46,538 nucleotides of DNA from a virus. Within the stretch, counting starts at the first letter, position 1. Each line of letters begins with the position of its first letter. Of this stretch, positions 1-11,162 are shown in pieces. Below the pieces are notes generated by a model. It saw only the letters and a program-made list of their open reading frames with translations, made no database searches and was not told where the DNA came from. The position numbers were made by a program, and so were the translations under genes. The DNA lies in the IMG/VR virus record IMGVR_UViG_3300045988_137997, positions 1-46,538 of that record; one strand, 5' to 3'.

Positions 1-901
1 CTGGTTGAAAGCGGTAGAAGCTCGTGAGCGTGTAGCGGGCTGGAAGAATGATGATCAAGGCGAGCAATGGCGGCAATCGATTCGAGATCATGCCTTACCC
101 CACCTTGCGAATTTGGATGTAGCAGAGATCACCCGCCGAGATGTTTTGGAGGCTCTGTTGCCCATTTGGGAGACTAAGAGCATTACAGCAATGGCCGTGC
201 GTCAAAGGCTCGAAATGATCTTCGACTGGTGCATCCGTGAAGGGCTGCGTGTAAAAGAGAATCCAGCTAGATGGAAGGGAGGCTTAGCCTTCGATCTTCC
301 GTCAAAGAATTACCTTCTAAAGCAGAACCACCATGAAGCTCCGACCTTTGACGAGTTGGTCAATGCCGCCCCTGCATTGATACTAACGGACGGAGGTCGA
401 TGCGCTCTTTTCGGAATCCTGACAGCCGGACGCGTAAGCGAGTTTCTAAAAGCCAAGTGGGAAGAAATCGATTTCGACGAGCGCGTTCTAACTATTCCGC
501 CAGAGCGACGTAAGGACAAAAAACCCTACCCTCATCGTGTCCCGCTTTCGAAGCAGGCGATCAAACTTTTGGAGATGATGCCACGAGATTCGGAATTTAT
601 TTTTAGAGGCCGCCGATCAAAAACATTGAGCTTGGATACCCCCAGAACGGCGCTCCGCTTCGCTGTCTGCAGACCTGTCACCATGCACGGATGCAGATCA
701 ACTTTTCGCGACTGGTGCTCTGAAAACGGCATTGATGAGATCGTGGCCGAAAAGTGTCTGCACGCTACCGGAAATGCCGTTGTGCAAGCCTATCAACGTT
801 CTGATCTCATAGAAAGACGCCGCTATGTAATGCAAAAGTGGGCTAACGCGATTTGCGTGCACTGTGAAGAGCTTCTAGCGCAATCGACTCCATCGCCTTG
901 A
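1..901 (+). CDS. int: Tyrosine integrase, P4/DUF4102 type, C-terminal part (ORF starts at 46176 and continues across the circular junction)
   Basis: In-frame continuation of the 46176..46538 ORF through the 55-bp terminal overlap. Catalytic signature present: R (GRVSEF), HxxR (HGCRSTFRDW), H...Y (LHATGNAVVQAYQRSD). Confidence 0.85.
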   Translation, partial: WLKAVEARERVAGWKNDDQGEQWRQSIRDHALPHLANLDVAEITRRDVLEALLPIWETKSITAMAVRQRLEMIFDWCIREGLRVKENPARWKGGLAFDLPSKNYLLKQNHHEAPTFDELVNAAPALILTDGGRCALFGILTAGRVSEFLKAKWEEIDFDERVLTIPPERRKDKKPYPHRVPLSKQAIKLLEMMPRDSEFIFRGRRSKTLSLDTPRTALRFAVCRPVTMHGCRSTFRDWCSENGIDEIVAEKCLHATGNAVVQAYQRSDLIERRRYVMQKWANAICVHCEELLAQSTPSP

Positions 902-1037
902 CGCGCTGAAAATAAAGCCGCCGCCAGCGGTAGAAGGCCTCTCGGCTCACACCGTGCCGGCGGCAAAGGTCTTCAACGCAGACTCCTCGCGCGAAATCGC
1001 GCAGAATTTTCTGTCCAATTTCGTCTGTGATCTTCAT
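843..1037 (-). pseudogene. Small HTH ORF resembling the N-terminus of IS3-family OrfA transposase (probable remnant)
   Basis: KILRDFARGVCVEDLCRRHGVSREAFYRWRRLY matches the IS3 OrfA HTH pattern. The C-terminal third is antisense to the int 3' end and looks non-coding. Confidence 0.3.
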
Positions 1038-1043
1038 GGCTTG

Positions 1044-1088
1044 AAAAACGAAGCCCGGGCGCGTGTATGCGTGTCCGGGCTTTTTTTA
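1044..1088. terminator. Bidirectional intrinsic terminator
   Basis: GC hairpin AAGCCCGG...CCGGGCTT is flanked by an A5 run upstream and a T7 run downstream. It closes the minus-strand lysis operon and plus-strand int transcription. Confidence 0.7.
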
Positions 1089-1556
1089 TTTGTGCAGTCT
1101 GGCTAGGGCGTCGTGCTTTCCTGCGACTCTCTGAGAAAGGCTTGCACCTTCAGAAGATAAGCCTGCACCCTCTTCGAGAAGTCCGACACAGAGGTCGAGT
1201 CGCTCTGCAAAATGCTTGCAGGAACTTGCACCGGCTGCGGACAATCGCTTGCGATAACTGTCGGACTCGACGCGCACCCGCTCAAGCTCAATGCGCAGAG
1301 AGCCGCTATCGGCACGGCTTTCAGCCAGTTCAGCCTTGCGCTTTTCGATCTCTTCCCATGCTTGGGAAAGTGCTTCAGTTTGCTTGCGCTCATTTGCACG
1401 ATGCTCCTTTTCTTTGTCAGCCAAGGCCAGCGCATGAGCGGCTTTAAGCTCATCGATGTCGGCCTGATACAAGGCCGCCGCGAAGCGGTAGCCTCCGAAA
1501 AAAAGAGCGGCTGCCGCGATGGCAACCGCCCCGATCTTGATCCAAGTACTCATCAC
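1086..1556 (-). CDS. Rz: i-spanin (Rz-like)
   Basis: N-terminal TM helix (WIKIGAVAIAAAALFFGGY) followed by a long charged coiled-coil. Lies directly downstream of the endolysin with overlapping stop/start. Confidence 0.7.
   Translation of the reverse strand: MMSTWIKIGAVAIAAAALFFGGYRFAAALYQADIDELKAAHALALADKEKEHRANERKQTEALSQAWEEIEKRKAELAESRADSGSLRIELERVRVESDSYRKRLSAAGASSCKHFAERLDLCVGLLEEGAGLSSEGASLSQRVAGKHDALARLHK
1103..1393 (-). CDS. Rz1: o-spanin lipoprotein (Rz1-like) embedded in Rz in another frame
   Basis: ATG at 1393, lipobox LSLSG|C, and a Pro/Ser-rich mature part (CASSPTVIASDCPQPVQVP). Confidence 0.6.
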   Translation of the reverse strand: MSASKLKHFPKHGKRSKSARLNWLKAVPIAALCALSLSGCASSPTVIASDCPQPVQVPASILQSDSTSVSDFSKRVQAYLLKVQAFLRESQESTTP

Positions 1557-2896: not shown

Positions 2897-2919
2897 AGCG
2901 GACAACTCCTTCAAAAATT

Positions 2920-2949
2920 AAGGCTCCCAGACACACGTCAAGGAGCCTT
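2920..2949 (+). promoter_or_regulatory. Hairpin that can sequester the SD of the second recombinase gene
   Basis: AAGGCTCC (2920..2927) is a perfect complement of GGAGCCTT (2942..2949). The second arm contains the AGGAG SD of the ATG at 2953. Confidence 0.35.
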
Positions 2950-2952
2950 GCG

Positions 2953-4095
2953 ATGACACTCACTACAAAACAAATTCAAGCTTTAAAACCGCGCGAATCG
3001 CGCTACTCAATCGCCGACGGCAACGGTCTGACCCTGCGCGTTCAGCCGTCCGGATCTAAGTCCTGGGTCTTCAGGTCGCACCATTCCGGCCGCATCACAG
3101 ACGAGACCATCGGCCACTGGCCTGAGATGAGCCTCAAGCAAGCCCGGATGATCGTCCGCCGGCGTCGCAAAGATGCAGGCCTTAAGCCGCCATCCGGGTA
3201 CGTGCTCAACGACGCCTTCAGGCTGTGGTGCGGCCTGAAAAAAGGTCGAATCGCTTCGTACAAAGAAGAACGACGTCGCCTCGAAAATCACGTCATCAGA
3301 GCCTTAGGACGCAAGCAAATCGACGAGATCACCGCGCCACTGATCATCAGCCACGTCCTTCCTATCGAGAGAGCCGGCAATCAGGCCACACTCAAAAGAA
3401 TTCTCATGCGTATGCGCGAGATCATGAATCTCGCTGTTTGTGCTGGCTACCTCCAGCACAACCCACTTGAACGCGTTTCGATGGTTTTCGCACCACCTGA
3501 GGTCGAGCCGATGCCGTCCGTGCACTGGTCTCGGATGATCGATGTCTGCCGCTGCTTTCTCGATGCTCCAGTCCGCACGCAGATCCTCTTTTGCTTTTCA
3601 GCGTGTTCGATGCTCAGACCGTCCGAAAACGCAAAGTTGCGTTGGTCCTGGATCGAAAATGACATCCTCACGATTCCTGCCGAAGAGATGAAGAAGCGCA
3701 AGGCCTTCCGTGTGCCACTTACACCCTTCATGCAGCAGATACTGGACGCCGCTAAACGACACTCTCGGCATCCACGATCTGACTATGTTTTTCCCGGGCG
3801 AACATCTGGCACGCACGTCAGCTCGCAATGTCTGGCCAAATACCTCCACACCACCGAGCTTTCCGGCAAGCTTGTCGCACATGGCTTGCGCTCCATGGCC
3901 CGAAGTTTCCTTGCCGATCGGCAAGCCCCCTTCGAAGCCGCCGAAATGTGCCTGTCTCACACCGTTGGCACAAGCGTCTCTCGGGCATATCAAAGAAGCG
4001 ACTACCTGGACGTTCGGCGCGATCTCATGGCCGCATGGAGTGACTATTTTTCAGGTTGTGCCGACAGTGCCGGCTTGAATCTCGATTTTCCATAA
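2953..4095 (+). CDS. Second tyrosine recombinase (P4/DUF4102 type); candidate tail-fibre shufflon invertase
   Basis: Arm-domain motif GLTLRVQPSGSKSWVFR. Catalytic R (MLRPSEN), HxxR (AHGLRSMARSF), H...Y (LSHTVGTSVSRAYQRSD). Lies directly beside the fibre cassettes. Confidence 0.85.
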   Translation: MTLTTKQIQALKPRESRYSIADGNGLTLRVQPSGSKSWVFRSHHSGRITDETIGHWPEMSLKQARMIVRRRRKDAGLKPPSGYVLNDAFRLWCGLKKGRIASYKEERRRLENHVIRALGRKQIDEITAPLIISHVLPIERAGNQATLKRILMRMREIMNLAVCAGYLQHNPLERVSMVFAPPEVEPMPSVHWSRMIDVCRCFLDAPVRTQILFCFSACSMLRPSENAKLRWSWIENDILTIPAEEMKKRKAFRVPLTPFMQQILDAAKRHSRHPRSDYVFPGRTSGTHVSSQCLAKYLHTTELSGKLVAHGLRSMARSFLADRQAPFEAAEMCLSHTVGTSVSRAYQRSDYLDVRRDLMAAWSDYFSGCADSAGLNLDFP

Positions 4096-5422
4096 GCCAC
4101 GGGCTTTTTCTCGCACATGAAGAGCTGCAGCCCTTGTGCCAAGCGCAGGGGCTTCGCACCTCGCTAGAGACTGACTTTCGAGGCGATTTCGACCTCAAAA
4201 AATGACTGCTCGTAACTGGACCTTTAGTCAGCTGTGCGTAGAAACTGGCATCAGCTGCAAACCCCCATTTGAGTCCGTGAAAGACTTCTCCATCAACATA
4301 TGGGTTACGCACATACATGTTGTATTCACGGCGGCCATCGTTTCGTGATGCGAGCTGTATGTATGCAATTCGATCGCCGTTTTCAGCGTAAACGGAATGT
4401 CCGTTAAATCTAGAGACATCGGGAATTGAATCATTCGAATCAACGGTTTGAGTCGATTCGATGACGGGAGCATGCGGGCCAAGCTTCAAATTGGCAGCCA
4501 TGCTGGTGCTGCCGTCCAATGCTAGGAATTTTGAACGGGTCCAAGCCGCTGTCACAGCTTCATCACTTGAGGCCTCTGCCAGTGGCCTGGGAACAAAGAA
4601 GGCCCTGTTTCCATTGGCTTTATATTCAAGAAACGCATGAGCATTGTTTTCGCTACCGCTTACGTTTTCGTACGAAAAAAACTCTAAGCGCGTCGATCCA
4701 TCTGTACCCGTTCGGAGAGTGATAACCCCGAGCCGCTCTTCAATGTCACTATCCCACCATTGAATTTGCCTATGGGAGACGTTTGATTTGTCCCCCTTAC
4801 TCACATAGCAAACTAACCCTAAATCGTTTTTAATGGATTTTTTACCAGTAACGAGTTCATTACCATCCAAGTGAACAACATTATTATCTTGAGCAATCTT
4901 GAACCACTCAGACCACTCACTCCCGTTTTTCACTCGGTAGAAAATGACGTTCGGCGTAGTTTGCTGAACACTCATTTGCCAAGCTACAGGACCGGCAGCA
5001 AATCTTCGATGTACGTGAATCAAAAGACCTGTGTAGTTCTGCGCCTGTTCACCTTTCGGTGAGTTTGCGACGTTGCTAGAGCATGTGTAGAAACCTGTGG
5101 CATCGACGTCATTCAAGTCCCTTGATGGGTAGGCATCAGACACATCTACAGCCGTATTAATACCCCCGGCAAGACCGTAACGACGAATCAACTTCCAGAC
5201 CCAAGAGGCAGGAACGATGTTCGAAGTGTTTACGTAATCTGCGGGCGTTTTGACCGTGCCGCCGCCATTCAAACTGGCTGCTCCAGTTACTTTCAGGCCC
5301 GAACTGAAAGTAACCGGAAAAGCCATAGTTGAGGACATCGCTATCCGCGGCAGTTCAACCGATTTCGCAGGGGATAGAGGGCAAATCGGCGATTGCCAAG
5401 ACGTCAATGACATTGACTTCAA
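4025..5422 (-). CDS. Silent tail-fibre cassette Sv3 (functional part about 4205..5296)
   Basis: Fibre-like sequence begins at the LKVTG site (5283..5296) and stops resembling fibre right after PVTSS (4205..4221). The remaining ORF to 4025 is low-complexity and antisense to the recombinase 3' end. The N-terminal extension to 5422 is antisense to Sv2. Confidence 0.6.
   Translation of the reverse strand: MKSMSLTSWQSPICPLSPAKSVELPRIAMSSTMAFPVTFSSGLKVTGAASLNGGGTVKTPADYVNTSNIVPASWVWKLIRRYGLAGGINTAVDVSDAYPSRDLNDVDATGFYTCSSNVANSPKGEQAQNYTGLLIHVHRRFAAGPVAWQMSVQQTTPNVIFYRVKNGSEWSEWFKIAQDNNVVHLDGNELVTGKKSIKNDLGLVCYVSKGDKSNVSHRQIQWWDSDIEERLGVITLRTGTDGSTRLEFFSYENVSGSENNAHAFLEYKANGNRAFFVPRPLAEASSDEAVTAAWTRSKFLALDGSTSMAANLKLGPHAPVIESTQTVDSNDSIPDVSRFNGHSVYAENGDRIAYIQLASRNDGRREYNMYVRNPYVDGEVFHGLKWGFAADASFYAQLTKGPVTSSHFLRSKSPRKSVSSEVRSPCAWHKGCSSSCARKSPWLMENRDSSRHCRHNLKNSHSMRP
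4205..4221. repeat. PVTSS-coding site, copy M1
   Basis: ACTGCTCGTAACTGGAC is identical over 17 bp to 8532..8548 and inverted relative to 6357..6371. Confidence 0.5.
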
Positions 5423-6728
5423 TGACTACACTCATTCTGGGGTTTGGAAGGTAGGAGGAACCTATCAAAATGCCGGAGCTTTTGGGAATGTCGGTGGTTT
5501 TTTGATCGTCCACAGCAATCGCGCCCATAACTACTTCTTTCAAATCTTCGAGAGAACACTGAATTCTGACCAGCTCCACATCAGAACCTACCACGGTTCT
5601 TCTGGCTGGCAGCCCTGGCGCAAGGTTATCTTGGAAACTGGCGGTGATTTGACGGGCGACCTCTCGACGACCGGCTCTTTCACGTCGTACAACATCCGCG
5701 GCTTTCGGCATCAGTACAGCGGCATTGACCGCGATGTAATTCCATCGTCGCAACAACAAATCTTTCCGTATGCCTTGCTCGATAAAAACGGCAAAACCGT
5801 TTCGATGTACAAGGTCATTCAAAACACCAGTGGAGGCATTGCCACTCAGATCGGCACGGTTCGGTCTGGTGATGACGGTGAGACTGAGTACGCACTGGTT
5901 GAGATTGGTTTCGATAGCGAGGGAGTCGCATACGCAAACGTCCCCAGCACGCCAAATGACGCTAACAACAATCGCGCTGCAACCTCAAAATTTGTCAACG
6001 ATCGGATCAGCGCACACGATGCGACATTGGTTCACACAACGGGATCTGAAACCATCAGCGGGTCAAAAACGTTCGAGAGCCCAGTTGTGAGCAAAGCGGT
6101 TTCGCTGATCCAAAGCACGAATTGGAGCGGGATTCGACTGAATGATACGAGTCGAACTAGTGATTCGACCAAGATGCTTGCTCAAATCCTTGATGCTGAT
6201 GGGAAGCGATGGATTGGGCTGGAAACCACGGCAAGCACTGATGGCAGTCGAACTGTGCAGTTAATTGGCCGCAATCGAGACGATACAGCCTGGCTCAATT
6301 TCATCAAGTTTTGGGAAAGAGCTGATGGAACGTACAACGTTTATTTGGCTCGAAATCCGGTTACGAGCAGTAACGACTCTAGTATCGCAACCACCAAGTG
6401 GGTCAACGATAAGTTGGCTGATTCGTCTATCACCGGCGAGGCAAAACTTGTCGAGACTTGGCACGACGGGGCCTCCTGGTATCGCATCTGGTCTGACGGC
6501 TTCATTGAACAAGGAGGCCAGTTTGAGTACGACACAAAGTTAAAAACCTACCACAAAGCTTACACATCCACCCCGAATGTTCAGATCAGTATGACTTTGA
6601 CAACATGGGGCTTAAATGACGATGGAGGTCTCTTCTTCCAATCGGGTCCTGACAAAAATGGGTTTTCTGTTAGAGGAAACGGGGACGCACTTGCCGGCAC
6701 GGTCTACTGGACCGCTAGAGGCTATTAG
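5250..6728 (+). CDS. Silent tail-fibre cassette Sv2 (functional part 5304..6728)
   Basis: Starts at the inverted LKVTG site. Contains fibre modules shared with Sv1 (NPVTSSNDSSIATTKWV). Ends ...GTVYWTARGY, like fibre 2 (YWMAIGY). Opposite strand to the expressed gene, with no credible own start. Confidence 0.65.
   Translation: MTVPPPFKLAAPVTFRPELKVTGKAIVEDIAIRGSSTDFAGDRGQIGDCQDVNDIDFNDYTHSGVWKVGGTYQNAGAFGNVGGFLIVHSNRAHNYFFQIFERTLNSDQLHIRTYHGSSGWQPWRKVILETGGDLTGDLSTTGSFTSYNIRGFRHQYSGIDRDVIPSSQQQIFPYALLDKNGKTVSMYKVIQNTSGGIATQIGTVRSGDDGETEYALVEIGFDSEGVAYANVPSTPNDANNNRAATSKFVNDRISAHDATLVHTTGSETISGSKTFESPVVSKAVSLIQSTNWSGIRLNDTSRTSDSTKMLAQILDADGKRWIGLETTASTDGSRTVQLIGRNRDDTAWLNFIKFWERADGTYNVYLARNPVTSSNDSSIATTKWVNDKLADSSITGEAKLVETWHDGASWYRIWSDGFIEQGGQFEYDTKLKTYHKAYTSTPNVQISMTLTTWGLNDDGGLFFQSGPDKNGFSVRGNGDALAGTVYWTARGY
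5283..5317. repeat. Head-to-head pair of LKVTG-coding sites (S1 5283..5296, S2 5304..5317)
   Basis: CCAGTTACTTTCAG-gcccgaa-CTGAAAGTAACCGG. S1 is identical to S3 (9643..9656). S2 is its inverted copy with 13/14 identity. Confidence 0.7.
6357..6371. repeat. PVTSS-coding site, copy M2 (inverted)
   Basis: CCGGTTACGAGCAGT is the reverse complement of the M1/M3 core with one mismatch. Confidence 0.45.
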
Positions 6729-6766
6729 CAGCGAAGGCCGCTTATTTGTTGAGCGGCCCCATTCGC

Positions 6767-7339
6767 TTACAAACACTCAGGCTTCTTTGGCCACATAACA
6801 TCAAGTGGGAAACCATCTTGCTGCGGCACATCGCGCAGCGCCTGGCGATAGACCTTTACGGCTTCGCGTTCTCCTTCAGACAGAGGATAGTCCGGCATGA
6901 CAAGATGGTCGGTCTCTGCCAGAAGCGCATCGCGCTGCGCCCGGACCTGTGCCGACGCTTCCGCCTTGACCTCTTCAGGCGTCTTTTCAGGGATCGCCTC
7001 GACGCTCCAGGACAGGTCTTTGCCTCGAGCCAGTCGATGCGTTTTGCTCCCGGCTGTGAGCGCCACAAAGAGCTTCTTCAATGTGTAGTCGTGAGGTGTT
7101 CTTGACTCATGTGCAACCACCATGCCAACGCACTCTTCAGGTGTAGTCGGGATCTTTTCTTCGAGCCACTTCTCGCCATCAAACCGGTAGAAGCAATCTT
7201 CCTTGCACGCCGGCGCAATTGTCGTGCAATTGTCCGGCATTGAAATAATTTCGCGCGTTACGTCATCAACTTGCGCGATAGTCGTTCCTGCGAAATAACC
7301 TTTTGAATCGTATTCATATACGTCAATTAAATTTTCCAT
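6767..7339 (-). CDS. Tail fibre assembly chaperone (Tfa)
   Basis: C-terminal motif DHLVMPDYPLSEGEREAVKVYRQALRDVPQQDGFPLDVMWPKKP is the classic Mu U / P2 G type. ATG at 7339. Confidence 0.8.
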   Translation of the reverse strand: MENLIDVYEYDSKGYFAGTTIAQVDDVTREIISMPDNCTTIAPACKEDCFYRFDGEKWLEEKIPTTPEECVGMVVAHESRTPHDYTLKKLFVALTAGSKTHRLARGKDLSWSVEAIPEKTPEEVKAEASAQVRAQRDALLAETDHLVMPDYPLSEGEREAVKVYRQALRDVPQQDGFPLDVMWPKKPECL

Positions 7340-7360
7340 TTTTAATTCCTTTATCAATAA

Positions 7361-7582
7361 CCGAACATCACTGGAGTTTGGTCTACAACTGGATATTCAA
7401 GAGATTCAATGCTGGCATACGGTGCTATATCTCACGAATATACTGGTCGTAAAAGTTCTGATGGACAAAACAACGTTGCTGGCGAACTAACTTTTGATGC
7501 TTCTCGTTGTAGTTCCGTTTTTGGTAAATCATCCGAAATCCAACCTCCCTCAGGCAAAGCCTTATGGATAATCAAGGTGTAA
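7361..7582 (+). CDS. Silent fibre-tip cassette A (73 aa, no start codon)
   Basis: Begins CCGAACATCAC (PNITG), is preceded by an in-frame TAA, and ends ...FDASRCSSVFGKSSEIQPPSGKALWIIKV*. Confidence 0.7.
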   Translation, partial: PNITGVWSTTGYSRDSMLAYGAISHEYTGRKSSDGQNNVAGELTFDASRCSSVFGKSSEIQPPSGKALWIIKV

Positions 7583-7801
7583 CCGAACATCACGGGTTAT
7601 ATCGGTGGCGGCGGACAGTCTGGCAACACAATTTATGGAGGCGCGTTCTACAACTATGGGCAAAATCAAAATACGGCAGATGACGGAAATTCGACCGTGC
7701 CGGTGATTGGTTTCGACGCAAGTCGTAGTTCTGCTGTGTATGGGGCCTCAGACGTTATTCAGCCTCCTTCTGGAAAAGCTTTATGGATCATCAAAACCTA
7801 A
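7583..7801 (+). CDS. Silent fibre-tip cassette B (72 aa, no start codon)
   Basis: Begins CCGAACATCACGGG directly after the TAA of cassette A. Ends ...FDASRSSAVYGASDVIQPPSGKALWIIKT*. Confidence 0.7.
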   Translation, partial: PNITGYIGGGGQSGNTIYGGAFYNYGQNQNTADDGNSTVPVIGFDASRSSAVYGASDVIQPPSGKALWIIKT

Positions 7802-7804
7802 TTT

Positions 7805-8014
7805 CCGAACATCATAGGCTCGTTCGTGGCTCACTACGGCAACAACCCTGTTTCCGGAGCTTTTTACAAGACCGGTACGGGCCGCTCAAAAAGCGGTACT
7901 GACAATGACGGCCAGGCGATTTCTTTCGATGCCTCATTGTGCAGCTCCGTATACGGTGCCGCAGACGTGATCCAGCCACCAGCCGGAAAGGCCTTGTGGA
8001 TCATCAAACTTTAA
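7805..8014 (+). CDS. Silent fibre-tip cassette C (69 aa)
   Basis: Begins CCGAACATCA (PNIIG) 3 nt after the TAA of cassette B. Ends ...FDASLCSSVYGAADVIQPPAGKALWIIKL*. Overlaps tail-to-tail with the expressed tip. Confidence 0.7.
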   Translation, partial: PNIIGSFVAHYGNNPVSGAFYKTGTGRSKSGTDNDGQAISFDASLCSSVYGAADVIQPPAGKALWIIKL

Positions 8015-10238
8015 TGATCCAAAGTGCTTTGCCTGCCGGTGGTTGGATGATGTCCGAAGAGCCATAGATAGGGTTACACAGAGAGGCATCGAACCCCATC
8101 TGGTAGACATTGGTATTGCCACCATCACCAGCGCCACCATTCTGTGTGTCCATACCGTAATACGCGCCTTCGGTGTTGTATCGATCGCCGTATTTGAACG
8201 CGTGGCCACCGTGTGTACCCGTGATGTTCGGTGCACCACTTTTGAGATAAGTGCCGACCTCTGATGCAGCGTTGGCTCCCATCACTGTGCGATTGCGCCA
8301 GTCAGGCAGTTTGAAGGTCGTGGAGCCATCGCCGGCACCCCAGGCCGTACCGATTGCCGCAAAAAGCTTGGCATACGTAGTGCGGCTGATCGTGCCCCCA
8401 TTGCAGGCCATAAAGCCCGATGGGACAGTCTTGCCCGCATATGGAAAGGCCACCCCAGATGGGATGGCCGAACCGAGACCTGCTTTAAAAAGTGCCCGTA
8501 CCCAGGCAGTCGTCGCAATCGAGTTGTCGTCACTGCTCGTAACTGGACTTTGACTCACCTTAAAGTAAGCGTTGCCGGCATTGTCTTCGGCGATTTGGAG
8601 AAAGTTTATCCAGCCAGAGTTATCCCGCCGTCTAGCAGTAACTTGAAATGTCCGACTTCCTTCGGTATTTGCCGTGCTCTCCAACCCCATGAACCGAAGT
8701 CCATCTTTGTCTATAACTTCGCAAATGGTTCGGTTAGCTGTTTTTGCACGAGAAGTGTCGGCAATGCTGACTCCTTCCCACGGAACGCTCTTTATGAACG
8801 TACTGGATGCGGATAGCAAAGATGAAGTGAATGTCTTGGCACCGTTGATTTTTTCAGCGTTGACAGTGTGAACTAACTGGGACTGCTCGGCATTCCAAAT
8901 ATAGGAACGAAGCCACCTTGTGGTGACAACTTCATAACCGTTCGATGTTTCTGCTGGGGAGTGATTGGCTCGAACATATCGAGTTCCATCTGCCCGATGA
9001 CCTATCTCCAGGCTGCTCCAGTCGCCATCTTCGTTATCAGCGTTGTAAAAATTGATATCGGACAGCACTACAGTGGTCTCACCTGATGCATATTGGAAGT
9101 GCTTGAGAAGCAATCCGCCTTTCCCGTTTTTGTCCCTATATCTGGCAAACCAAGTCTGCGTAGTGGTTTCGGGGACTTTCGTGAAATCTTGGTCTGGGCG
9201 TACCACTTCCAACCCAGTTGACGCATAGACATTGATCGGGCGATAAAATTTTTTCCACCCATTTATTTCTTCGTCACCAGTTAGGTGGACAAAAGCATTG
9301 TTTGCCCACTTGGCCGTGATCAGCGTATGGTCATTCACTGAAGCCGATGGGCTATCGGCAGCAATGATCCGGACTTCCTCGTTCGCGTATTCCTTGATTG
9401 TTAAGAACAGACGCCATGAAGTATTTGCTCGATTTCGACCATTGAAACGCAGGTCTCGGCTGCCGTCCTGGTTAAAGTAGGCTTCTTCAGAGATAAGTGC
9501 AGCACCATCTCTATCCGCAATTCTGTAAACAATGATGTTTTTCGAAGAATCCCGTTCAGTATCAGAAACGCTTACATCAGATCTACTGCCGAAAAGCCAT
9601 TGGTTTGTATTGAATGTGATTCGGTTCCCGTGTGCAGCTTGACCAGTTACTTTCAGTAACCCGCCGATGGTGGCATCACCGTTCGCCTGAAGAGCCTCAA
9701 GAGTGGTCTTGCCGTGGACGACCAAGTTTCCGGAAACATCTCCATTGCCGTTCAGGTCAAGCTCTGTGGCCGTGACTTTCTTGGCCGAAACTGCCTGCAA
9801 AGTGCTCGCGCCATTGACTTTCAGCGTGCCACTGGCCGAAATGTTCGTCGCATTGACGGCGGCCAAAGTGCTCGTTCCGGTCGCCGTGATGCTCGTGACA
9901 TTCAAACCACCTTGCGCATTCAAGGATCCCTTGATGGTGGCAGCTCCGCCCACCACAAAAGTCCCGGACACATCACCATTGCCATTGATGTCGAGATTCG
10001 TGCCAGTGACCTTGCCAAAGCTCACGTCGCCAAAGCGAGTCGCTGCGGTCAACCCCTGATCAACCGACTTCGGCGCGTTGCCGGACCCCGTCCGGATCAG
10101 CTTGCCGGCCACCTGATCAGCCATCAGTTGCTTGTATGCCTGATCCGCAACAGCCACTTTGTCGGACGGCATGGCGTCCGTTGACATAAGTTCGGACGAA
10201 AAAAAAGCGCGTTCGGACGCGCTGTAGTAGTAAGCCAT
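8004..10238 (-). CDS. Tail fibre 3 (expressed isoform: constant N-module + Sv1 + tip D)
   Basis: 744 aa. Contains G-x-L-x-V-x-G repeats, repeated ..SIATTAWV.. fibre modules, and a tail-collar-type domain (FPYAGKTVPSGFMACNGGTISRTTYAKLFAAIGTAWGAGDGSTTFKLPDWRNRT). Good SD. Confidence 0.85.
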   Translation of the reverse strand: MAYYYSASERAFFSSELMSTDAMPSDKVAVADQAYKQLMADQVAGKLIRTGSGNAPKSVDQGLTAATRFGDVSFGKVTGTNLDINGNGDVSGTFVVGGAATIKGSLNAQGGLNVTSITATGTSTLAAVNATNISASGTLKVNGASTLQAVSAKKVTATELDLNGNGDVSGNLVVHGKTTLEALQANGDATIGGLLKVTGQAAHGNRITFNTNQWLFGSRSDVSVSDTERDSSKNIIVYRIADRDGAALISEEAYFNQDGSRDLRFNGRNRANTSWRLFLTIKEYANEEVRIIAADSPSASVNDHTLITAKWANNAFVHLTGDEEINGWKKFYRPINVYASTGLEVVRPDQDFTKVPETTTQTWFARYRDKNGKGGLLLKHFQYASGETTVVLSDINFYNADNEDGDWSSLEIGHRADGTRYVRANHSPAETSNGYEVVTTRWLRSYIWNAEQSQLVHTVNAEKINGAKTFTSSLLSASSTFIKSVPWEGVSIADTSRAKTANRTICEVIDKDGLRFMGLESTANTEGSRTFQVTARRRDNSGWINFLQIAEDNAGNAYFKVSQSPVTSSDDNSIATTAWVRALFKAGLGSAIPSGVAFPYAGKTVPSGFMACNGGTISRTTYAKLFAAIGTAWGAGDGSTTFKLPDWRNRTVMGANAASEVGTYLKSGAPNITGTHGGHAFKYGDRYNTEGAYYGMDTQNGGAGDGGNTNVYQMGFDASLCNPIYGSSDIIQPPAGKALWIIKV
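8221..8235. repeat. PNITG-coding site D in the expressed gene (inverted relative to A/B/C)
   Basis: The reverse complement reads ACCGAACATCACGGG, identical over 15 bp to site B. Confidence 0.7.
8532..8548. repeat. PVTSS-coding site, copy M3
   Basis: 17-bp identity with M1, inside sequence that is otherwise only about two-thirds identical. Confidence 0.5.
9643..9656. repeat. LKVTG-coding site S3 at the constant/variable junction of the expressed fibre
   Basis: CCAGTTACTTTCAG is identical to S1 and in the same codon phase as S1 and S2. Confidence 0.7.
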
Positions 10239-10250
10239 ATCTATACCTCG

Positions 10251-11162
10251 TCAGTAGCCGATTGCCATCCAGTAGCTCGAAACGCCTCCATTGCCGTTGT
10301 GCTTGAAGGCTGCGTTGCCTCGCTTGAGCGTCGACAGCGCGAAAGTCGGCGCAAAGTTCCCTTTAGCCTCTGCGACTGCAAAAACGGCCTTGGTTGGAAA
10401 AGCCACCGGGAAAGCGATCACGCTGTTTCCGTTCGATGCCAGCGTCGCCTGCCCCCACTGCAGAATCAGGCCGTTCGGCAGCTTCTGCATCCCCCAGTCG
10501 CCATGCGCCTTCAAAAAGGCAGCCAGAAGGTTTGCCGGAGTCAAAGCCTTGGTCTGATCCTTGCCGGCCGCCACTTCGGAGGATGTCGCAATGCGGATCA
10601 AGCCGGTGCGCCCGGTCGTAGCTGTGCGAGCCGACAAGGATGCGCAGGTGACGACACGTGTGGCATCCGTGCCCGTGATGGTCTCTTCGTTCGTCGCCAG
10701 CTCGACCACGCCCAGCGTCGACGTCGTCGCCGGCGGGTTCAAAAGGTTGGCGTCACCAAAAATGACTTGGTCGGCACTGAAGTCCGTCACCGCGATGTCG
10801 ATGGCCAGCATCGAAATGGCCATCGCCGACTTTTGCAGAATCGGCGTGTTTTGCGAGTAGACAGCAAAGAGAGTGCCCTTGTCGGTATACAGCCCAACTT
10901 CGTAGACCGTATAGGCGTCATCCGTACTATCCTGCACCGTGCAGTGGATGATATTGTCGGCCACTGCACCGCCGGCGACCGTTGTCAGTCGCTTAAACTC
11001 GGCCTGGAGCTGAGTCTGCTCAGGTGTGGCCGTGTACTGTCCGGTCCCGTATCCGACTTCAGTAATCAAAACAGCATCTGTGCCGGCTTGCGACGCGGCC
11101 ACTACCTCATCGAGGCCGGCCTGCGTGATGATCATTTTGAGTTCGTTTGCAGTATCGGGCAT
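10251..11162 (-). CDS. Tail fibre 2 (P2 H-like collar N-domain, gp53-like C-terminus)
   Basis: N-terminus is paralogous to fibre 1 (IITQAGL...YTVYEVGLYTDKGTLFAVYS). GTD..A.TP fibre repeats. C-terminus LILQWGQ...FPVAFP...YWMAIGY. Confidence 0.8.
   Translation of the reverse strand: MPDTANELKMIITQAGLDEVVAASQAGTDAVLITEVGYGTGQYTATPEQTQLQAEFKRLTTVAGGAVADNIIHCTVQDSTDDAYTVYEVGLYTDKGTLFAVYSQNTPILQKSAMAISMLAIDIAVTDFSADQVIFGDANLLNPPATTSTLGVVELATNEETITGTDATRVVTCASLSARTATTGRTGLIRIATSSEVAAGKDQTKALTPANLLAAFLKAHGDWGMQKLPNGLILQWGQATLASNGNSVIAFPVAFPTKAVFAVAEAKGNFAPTFALSTLKRGNAAFKHNGNGGVSSYWMAIGY

Follow-up and report, generated by a model that had tools for sequence, protein, structure and literature searches.

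Probable crossover function of PVTSS-coding sites in a three-tier tail-fibre shufflon of a temperate Sutterella myovirus

The DNA analyzed here is IMG/VR virus record IMGVR_UViG_3300045988_137997, positions 1 to 46,538 (this whole stretch of 46,538 nucleotides (nt) is called the window below), and the system in question is the tail-fibre locus at one end of this temperate myovirus genome. Three modules of the locus, Sv1, Sv2 and Sv3, contain a short site encoding the peptide PVTSS. We consider it highly probable (roughly 0.85) that these are crossover sites of site-specific recombination, serving as the middle one of three tiers in the tail-fibre shufflon of a temperate Sutterella myovirus. 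Repeat analysis revealed three families of short sites. Ten sites of these three classes, in both orientations, lie between 4205 and 9656 and delimit in-frame cassettes adjoining a tyrosine recombinase gene. In the following, T1, T2 and T3 denote Tier 1, Tier 2 and Tier 3 sites, which encode LKVTG, PVTSS and PNITG, respectively; m1, m2 and m3 denote the middle modules of Sv1, Sv2 and Sv3; C1 and C2 denote the Sv1-type and Sv2-type C-terminal domains. The layout of the locus is junk, T2, m3, T1, T1, m2, T2, (C2, chaperone, tips, C1), T2, m1, T1, constant part.

The PVTSS-coding sites

The exact 17-mer ACTGCTCGTAACTGGAC was found in two copies, at 4205-4221 and 8532-8548, as an earlier sequence-only reading of this DNA had reported. 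A third copy lies in reverse complement at 6355-6371 and carries 2 mismatches. The string CCGGTTACGAGCAGT, which that reading gave as the inverted copy at 6357-6371, is indeed there, although only 14/15 of its positions agree with the reverse complement of the 17-mer (CCG for CCA). When up to 3 mismatches were allowed, the 46.5-kilobase (kb) window held no further match to the 17-mer (0.05 expected), and three or more matches occurred in 0/100 shuffles. The stretch common to all three copies is the 12 nt GTTACGAGCAGT. The Tier 2 sites are as follows.

Tier 2 site a: 4205-4221, + strand; recombinase-proximal, exact 17-mer with core CTGCTCGTAACTGG at 4206-4219; PVTSS on the minus strand
Tier 2 site b: 6355-6371, - strand; reverse complement ACTGCTCGTAACCGGAT; PVTSS on the plus strand
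Tier 2 site c: 8532-8548, + strand; exact 17-mer within the expressed fibre gene
Tier 2 class: core CTGCTCGTAACYGG, encoding PVTSS antisense; at 4206 (+), 6357 (-) and 8533 (+)

PVTSS is encoded in frame in all three modules. The open reading frames (ORFs) confirmed that Sv1 and Sv2 continue after it with (D/N)D.SIATT.WV, followed by a C-terminal domain, and that Sv3 does not. Instead, Sv3 reads HFLRSKSPRK... until a stop at 4025, and the end of its ORF overlaps the 3' end of the recombinase gene by 70 nt in antisense. The codons flanking the site had been described as about two-thirds identical; the measured identity between Sv1 and Sv2 was lower, 47% over the 60 nt upstream and 37% over the 60 nt downstream. 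Within the 1.2-kb Sv1/Sv2 alignment, exact runs of at least 10 nt occurred at two sites only, that of PVTSS (12 nt) and that of LKVTG (11 nt). Runs at other conserved peptide motifs, e.g. GLE(S/T)TA..GSRT and SIATT.WV, were shorter than 9 nt. The sequence-only reading had considered that comparable nucleotide identity at other conserved fibre motifs would make PVTSS simply a conserved module boundary; since those motifs gave runs below 9 nt against 12 nt at PVTSS, this interpretation was not upheld.

Junctions in public assemblies

Twenty loci were retrieved from public assemblies, L001-L010 by exact identity of the recombinase and L011-L020 by exact identity of the tail-fibre chaperone. The chaperone query was the 190-amino-acid (aa) product with an ATG start, as the 196-aa ORF with a TTG start matched nothing. 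The T2 junctions of the 20 loci and the window, written in coding orientation, comprised 21 distinct junction sequences. Around the 15-nt site CC(A/G)GTTACGAGCAGT the flanks switched directly at the site edges. Only three right-hand contexts were found, namely C2 (aacgactctag...), junk (cattttttgagg...) and C1 (gacgacaactc...), while the left-hand side was occupied by at least 11 middle modules. Sv3 was joined to junk in the window, L001, L008 and L004 and to C2 in L014 and L020, and Sv3 or an Sv3-like module was joined to C1 in L012. Another middle module, X3, was followed by junk in L006 and L007 and by C2 in L017. Sv1 was followed by C1 in the window and by junk in L005.

The reading of the PVTSS sites as second-tier crossover sites gained support from the homology breaks in these assemblies. 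Homology between the window and L002, L003, L006, L007, L009 and L010 extended from the lysis genes through the recombinase gene and ended at 4220/4221, where the first T2 site has its outer edge; beyond lay different middle modules. Contigs from five samples ended 0-2 nt from a T2 outer edge, among them L010, L015, L018 (at both ends) and L019. L017, L018, L019 and L020 reach or end at 6356/6357, and L018 also ends at 8548. L018 consists of exactly the T2-to-T2 segment, with only 'gt' past each site. Such ends would be expected if the segment flips within the sample between middle modules ending in ...aaggt and ...aaagt, and a strain mixture would look alike.

An inversion between 4205 and 6357 had been predicted to give Sv3 the C-terminal domain of Sv2. 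That product was found intact in L014, a 266-kb contig encoding a 676-aa fibre ORF in which the constant part, Sv3 and C2 are in frame, and the same junction was present in L020. Compared with the window, the L014 fibre was identical at 194/199 residues of the constant part, 361/364 residues of the Sv3 middle and 124/124 residues of the Sv2 C-terminus, and the overlaps at its junctions were 14 nt at Tier 1 and 16 nt at Tier 2. Because L014 carries this intact fibre, Sv3 is a parked cassette and not a decayed remnant. In L012 the T2-to-T2 segment (6372-8531) is inverted relative to the recombinase gene. There an Sv3-like middle reads into C1 and an Sv1-like middle is parked beside the recombinase gene, and the expressed fibre is composed of the constant part, another middle module and C2.

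Comparison of the loci also agreed with the earlier statement that Sv3 ends at PVTSS and then runs into junk. The tail DNA (the spacer beyond the recombinase gene) is 88-100% conserved across loci, and its reading frame is broken by a frameshift in L005 and by a different stop in L012. The possibility that the tail is a real C-terminal extension was rejected for these reasons. A conserved protein motif cannot explain the joint to junk, because one flank is non-fibre DNA. Chimeric assembly at the repeats was likewise rejected. The repeats (14-17 nt) are shorter than the k = 141 given in the MEGAHIT contig names, and the Logan contigs were presumably assembled at k = 31; a chimeric origin of the joints is unlikely, since the repeats are shorter than the assembly k.

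Three loci were collapsed, with PVTSS running straight into junk and the recombinase gene (L002, 11073-12890; L003, 3797-5626; L004, 11073-12464). Their order is constant part, T1, middle module, T2, junk, recombinase gene, and they carry no C-terminal domain, chaperone or tip cassettes. The same middle-T2-junk join was seen in L005, whose contig ends at the T1 site. By their arrangement, L002-L004 look like what recombination between directly repeated T1 or T2 sites would yield; an ancestral state or an assembly path is a less likely origin.

No match to 2900-10300 was obtained by Megablast against the GenBank phage collection. Scanning IMG/VR with the degenerate 15-nt site gave single chance matches only, and scanning it with specific junk-side and C2-side junction strings gave no match; the C1-side junction string recovered 4 short partial loci. 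Among contigs bearing the chaperone gene, 16/22 were shorter than 2 kb.

Locus architecture, recombinase and core sequences

The gene order is lysis genes with a DUF7338 gene, recombinase, Sv3 ORF (-), Sv2 ORF (+), chaperone (-), three tip cassettes (+) and a 744-aa fibre gene (8004-10238, -), which is followed by two more fibre genes and then by baseplate genes. Besides the Tier 2 sites, the parts of the locus are the following.

2953..4095, +: tyrosine recombinase of 380 aa, identified by its Pfam domains; candidate shufflon invertase
4096..4204, no strand: non-coding spacer from the recombinase stop to the first site, supplying the Sv3 'junk' tail; palindrome TGTGCCAAGCGCA at 4135-4147
4222..5282, -: Sv3 middle module m3 in parked slot 1; 99% identical copy in the L014 fibre, joined to C1 in L012
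5283..5296, -: Tier 1 site a, CTGAAAGTAACTGG, encoding LKVTG
5304..5317, +: Tier 1 site b, CTGAAAGTAACCGG, facing site a head-to-head with a 7-nt spacer between them
5318..6356, +: Sv2 middle module m2 in slot 2, from its ORF and the Sv1/Sv2 alignment
6372..8531, no strand: central invertible segment holding C2, chaperone, tips and C1; Pfam Phage_tail_APC and Collar
6372-6728, +: C2, the Sv2-type C-terminal domain
6767-7339, -: tail-fibre chaperone
7358-8015, +: three parked tip cassettes
8531-8004, -: C1, the Sv1-type C-terminal collar domain with its tip
7361-7374 (+, CCGAACATCACTGG, PNITG), 7583-7596 (+), 7805-7818 (+, CATAGG variant) and 8218-8231 (-): Tier 3 sites
8549..9642, -: Sv1 middle module m1 in expressed slot 3; an Sv1-like module stands beside junk and the recombinase gene in L005 and L012
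9643..9656, -: Tier 1 site c, the junction of constant part and middle module
9657..10238, -: constant N-terminal fibre part of about 198 aa, found joined to 8 or more different middle modules in the loci compared
Tier 1 class: core CTGAAAGTAACYGG, encoding LKVTG; at 5283 (-), 5304 (+) and 9643 (-)
Tier 3 class: core CCGAACATCACNGG, i.e. CCGAACATCA(C/T)NGG, encoding PNITG; at 7361, 7583 and 7805 (+) and 8218 (-)

The junction tables of T1 and T3 across the loci were as combinatorial as that of T2. C1 and the chaperone gene are co-oriented. By eye, C2 resembles the gp53-like, self-contained C-terminal head of the adjacent 303-aa fibre, a likeness whose sole support is the Pfam hit on the 303-aa protein.

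The consequences of this arrangement were simulated from the order found in the window, with inversion allowed between any two sites of one tier that lie in opposite orientation. With T1 alone, 2 states were reached (m1-C1 and m2-C2). Adding the two internal T2 sites gave 4 states, in which m1 or m2 was combined with C1 or C2 and m3 never appeared. When all sites took part there were 12 states, covering all 6 middle-by-C-terminus fibres, and m3-C2 was reached after two inversions. The architecture was preserved in every simulated state, and both L012 and L014 fit predicted states. In the simulation m3 could be expressed only when the 4205 site participated, which supports the earlier proposal that this site unlocks Sv3. 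With four tips (window) or five (L001), about 15-18 fibres can be encoded.

The proposed mechanism has three levels. Inversions between oppositely oriented T1 sites would choose the middle module; T2 inversions would either flip the central segment, presenting C1 with the chaperone or C2, or swap the two parked middles; T3 inversions would determine which tip C1 carries. The T2 site at 4205 would serve as a terminal site, and the 'junk tail' of Sv3 would be mere read-through from a parked cassette, because the DNA past this site is non-coding. The adjacent 380-aa P4-integrase-like tyrosine recombinase would catalyse all three tiers, which would be kept apart by differing central bases of the presumed strand-exchange region in the 14-nt cores. 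Recombination between direct repeats would occur as well, giving the collapsed loci.

The 380-aa recombinase matched Pfam Arm-DNA-bind_3 (residues 3-74, E = 1.4e-15), Phage_int_M and Phage_integrase, all three above the cut-offs, and its arm domain matched the CP4-like integrase structures 3jtz and 3ju0. In NCBIfam only the generic integrase model PRK09692 was hit, below its cut-off. These results place the protein with P4/CP4-57-type integrases. It shares 26% identity with the prophage's own integrase, which is encoded at the prophage end (5-901), and is the only recombinase encoded at the locus. R222, H310, R313, H336 and Y346 were invariant in 15 homologues, and these positions are candidate catalytic residues. 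A serine invertase was considered as the actor and rejected, since tblastn of the window with a Gin/Hin-like query found none (best E = 5.3) and the adjacent gene encodes a tyrosine recombinase.

Homologues were collected by an alignment-based scan of genome contigs, where a single-protein scan with the recombinase gave no relative. Those with at least 50% identity were confined to Sutterellaceae (Sutterella, Duodenibacillus and 'Candidatus Aphodousia'), and Succinivibrio homologues were about 38-39% identical. In the relatives whose context was read (L021, L223/L224 and L225), the gene lies between the lysis and tail-fibre genes. Relatives with 51-76% identity in Sutterella, Duodenibacillus and Aphodousia, and those with about 39% in Succinivibrio (L021/L022, L223/L224 and L025-L040), have only a PNITG-type site 52-122 nt past the recombinase stop. 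In the window this position is held by a T2 site, 110 nt past the stop, and only in the closest lineage, where recombinase identity is about 87% or higher, was a T2 site found beside the gene. The T1 and T2 tiers appear confined to that lineage. In each of the pairs L021/L022 and L223/L224 the recombinases are identical, and the members diverge right after CCGAATAT and CCCAACATCA, respectively. The downstream DNA of L022 corresponds, in reverse complement, to a stretch located about 500 nt farther on in L021 (L021 6087-7452 compared). Because the 4205 site holds the recombinase-proximal position conserved in the family, there is a strong circumstantial case, short of proof, that the recombinase acts on it. 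Beside a 64%-identical recombinase in L225 (9082-10626), a parked middle-like module also ends in a non-fibre tail, but at ...ADRDWVMEKH, next to junk and without PVTSS; site classes beyond these three may thus be in use in other lineages.

The cores CTGAAAGTAACYGG, CTGCTCGTAACYGG and CCGAACATCACNGG of T1, T2 and T3 have common outer bases and a divergent centre. Aligned in the same orientation they read CTGAAAGT-AACYGG (T1), CTGCTCGT-AACYGG (T2) and CCGAACAT-CACNGG (T3), and the T1 and T2 cores differ at 3 central nt only, though T2 sits on the non-coding strand. In 207 kb of related loci, 98/101 matches to the degenerate core fell into the three classes (CCGAACAT, 42; CTGCTCGT, 32; CTGAAAGT, 24), and no hybrid between classes was seen among these 98 instances. 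The window held 13 matches to the degenerate core against 0.84 expected, 9/13 of them within 4.2-9.7 kb, an enrichment that is descriptive only, as the pattern was derived from these sites. By-eye inspection of the sites for dyad symmetry gave only partial, inconsistent arms (GTTAC...GTAAC at the constant-part-side T1 site and the C2-side T2 site). Polymorphisms travelled with the variable flank at T1 positions 9 and 12, at the Y position of T2 and at the last bases of T3. Since these positions follow the variable flank, we infer that exchange must fall within the first 8-12 bases of the core. Tyrosine recombinases require identical exchange regions, as lox spacer variants show; with cores that differ centrally, the tiers would therefore be mutually incompatible site classes.

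Several further observations concern individual parts. The head-to-head Tier 1 pair (5283-5317) is a near-perfect palindrome with 14-nt arms and a 7-nt spacer (GCCCGAA), and the contigs of L005, L006 and L007 end exactly at this pair. The parked tip cassettes encode about 72 aa each (PNITG...IQPPxGKALWIIK*) on the + strand, opposite to the expressed tip (8231-8004, -). L001, which is the same phage (100% identity), has one additional tip cassette and an N gap in the tip region, and in L019 (99.9% identity) the expressed tip is inverted relative to the chaperone. The spacer palindrome TGTGCCAAGCGCA lies 71 nt ahead of the recombinase-proximal site in the window, and a TGTGC-N3-GCACA-like palindrome precedes the equivalent site by 59-73 nt in L032, L034, L035, L036, L038 and L040. 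Its function may be that of an accessory or arm-type binding site or of a terminator stem. The prophage integrase (5-901; 402 aa in L001) is directly upstream of the lysis genes in the window and in L001. The same lysis end adjoins the host genes rpsF-priB-rpsR-rplI-dnaB in L002, L004, L005, L007, L009 and L010 (window 1-1100 compared with L002/L004 6182-8101). Because this end meets host genes in those loci and the integrase gene in the window and L001, the window may be an excised or circularly joined form of the phage and not the integrated one.

Alternative explanations and known systems

Some observations weigh against the shufflon interpretation. The isomers come from different samples and their modules are 95-99.9% identical, and the contig breaks could reflect strain mixtures and not switching within a clone. 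The recombinase is assigned as the enzyme through its adjacency and the conserved site position, and an integrase-type arm-binding domain is unusual in an invertase. The boundaries of strand exchange are deduced from which polymorphisms accompany which flank. Some of the rearrangement seen is destructive, as the fibre encoded in L002-L004 lacks a C-terminal domain.

PVTSS might be only a conserved module boundary, with the mosaics arising by ordinary homologous or illegitimate recombination and Sv3 being a chance-truncated remnant. Sv1 and Sv2 share PVTSS with (D/N)D.SIATT.WV as a conserved fibre motif, and isomers were seen across samples rather than inside one clone, both of which suit this explanation. 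However, every breakpoint lies inside 12-15 nt of identity, which is very short for homologous recombination, and equally conserved peptide motifs have no such identity runs. On one side lies non-fibre DNA, at a constant distance from the recombinase gene and at the position of the site in relatives. Moreover, L012 shows inversion of an entire segment between copies of opposite orientation, Sv3 is intact within the expressed ORF of L014 (361/364 residues), and the T2 core equals the T1 core but for 3 central nt while lying on the opposite coding strand. We therefore regard a mere module boundary as very improbable. Insertion and excision of a circular block between direct T2 repeats could also be the primary process, with inversion secondary, the 4.3-kb stretch 4222-8548 being an insertion into a simple locus. 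The sites at 4205 and 8532 are direct repeats bounding this block, the recombinase is integrase-like with an arm domain, and simple loci exist (L002, L003, L004, and L005 as far as its contig goes). Yet the fibre of these loci lacks a C-terminal domain and chaperone, which makes them more plausible as end-products of deletion; inverted T2 arrangements were directly seen in L012 and L014, and oppositely oriented sites match inversion systems. Such insertion would be compatible with the shufflon rather than exclusive of it, and as the primary process it is given very little credence.

The sites could be real and Tier 2 served by another enzyme, either a host recombinase of Xer type or other kind or the prophage integrase (5-901), leaving the 380-aa protein to Tier 3 only. 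This would suit the finding that recombinases of 51-76% identity adjoin PNITG-type sites only and that T2 takes this place only where recombinases are at least about 87% identical. On the other hand, in the lineage of the window the conserved recombinase-proximal site is T2 and not T3, and the T1, T2 and T3 cores have the same outer bases and the same orientation relative to the recombinase gene. The locus encodes no other recombinase, and the second integrase is 26% identical and located at the prophage end. A separate Tier 2 enzyme is accordingly unlikely. We slightly favour, over its negation, the explanation that a single tyrosine recombinase derived from an integrase acts on three site classes incompatible with one another, one of them antisense, and so assembles the fibre hierarchically.

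Among known systems, the R64 shufflon of IncI plasmids (Rci/sfx) uses a tyrosine recombinase and multiple inversions, with sites in frame in an adhesin-tip gene. The sfx sites are short and asymmetric, with a conserved exchange region and one conserved arm; all share one spacer, any inverted pair recombines, and only a C-terminal segment is exchanged. Work on these sites by Gyohda et al. (2002 and 2006) is cited in PMC11850598. The locus described here resembles R64 in having multiple short asymmetric sites in both orientations, in-frame cassettes and an adjacent tyrosine recombinase gene. It differs in having three exchange-region classes instead of one spacer, probably in the architecture of its recombinase (P4/CP4-57-type as placed by Pfam and NCBIfam), and in acting on a phage fibre and not a pilus adhesin. 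Site asymmetry blocks deletion in R64. Unlike R64, the present system may not suppress deletion, and apparent deletion products are common (L002-L004).

The inversion systems Min (p15B) and Gin, Cin and Pin (Mu, P1 and e14) use serine recombinases and sites of about 26 bp with a 2-bp exchange region, together with a Fis enhancer, and all their sites are equivalent; Min has six sites and shuffles several in-frame segments (summarized in PMC6109161). The resemblance to them is functional only: inversion within a myovirus fibre gene, an alternative C-terminus and a co-oriented chaperone. The central T2-to-T2 segment, with C2, chaperone and C1 in opposite orientations and inverted in L012, recalls the G segment of Mu. 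Unlike these systems, the segment here adjoins a tyrosine recombinase gene. P4/CP4-57-type integrases share the arm-binding, central and catalytic domains of the 380-aa protein; here a separate integrase (5-901) occupies the prophage end and the 380-aa gene is internal.

Closest in kind is the Rin shufflon of Bifidobacterium prophages, whose recombinase was described as the first tyrosine invertase to be encoded by a phage (Mavrich et al. 2018, PMC6109161). In both systems a phage tyrosine recombinase adjoins cassettes of a receptor-binding protein whose constant N-terminus lies on the far side, inversions at short asymmetric intragenic sites join this N-terminus to alternative C-termini, and a terminal site serves only the rearrangement of parked cassettes (PMC6109161). 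Rin is XerD-like and armless, with one class of 11-bp rix sites (TTCCCTAACCC) and one level, in a siphovirus receptor-binding protein (PMC6109161). In contrast, the present enzyme is P4/CP4-57-integrase-like with an arm-binding domain, and three nested classes (CTGAAAGTAACYGG, CTGCTCGTAACYGG and CCGAACATCACNGG) occur in one myovirus fibre gene, with T2 antisense to the coding strand. A shufflon of BV01-like Phocaeicola phages has one 10-bp motif class, three cassettes and six variants and affects the 3' end only (2026 preprint, PMC13596623); like the present one, it is a recombinase-flanked multi-cassette fibre shufflon of gut temperate phages whose configurations differ between samples. In PglX of Lacticaseibacillus rhamnosus, two nested inversion levels are required to swap an internal segment and keep the N- and C-termini (Milman et al. 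2023, PMC9881135). PglX is a host defence gene, unlike the phage fibre here, and distinct site classes with common arms are not reported in the available part of that paper. Our literature search found neither a described Sutterella phage inversion system nor a described multi-tier fibre shufflon with distinct site classes. Fibre shufflons driven by tyrosine recombinases are already known from Rin, and what is new here is the three-tier, multi-class variant.

If one recombinase does serve all three classes, a constant base, 3 middles, 2 C-terminal domains and 4-5 tips would be combined within one genome, with a population pool of at least 11 middle modules. The system would parallel, in nature, the engineered lox spacer variants and would be a first case of an arm-domain integrase recruited as a multi-tier invertase. 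These short natural sites are apparently orthogonal under one recombinase; swapping AAA and CTC in the core would probe exchange-region specificity, and such sites could be usable in synthetic inversion circuits. They also carry a warning for metagenomics: assemblies fragment at these sites or collapse to truncated fibre genes, and a fibre ORF that looks like 'junk' may be a parked cassette. In Mu, P1, Rin and BV01 only the tip is varied, whereas in this gut prophage three consecutive regions of a single receptor-binding fibre appear to be varied independently of one another. Modular recombination between phages would thereby become a programmed process inside one genome.

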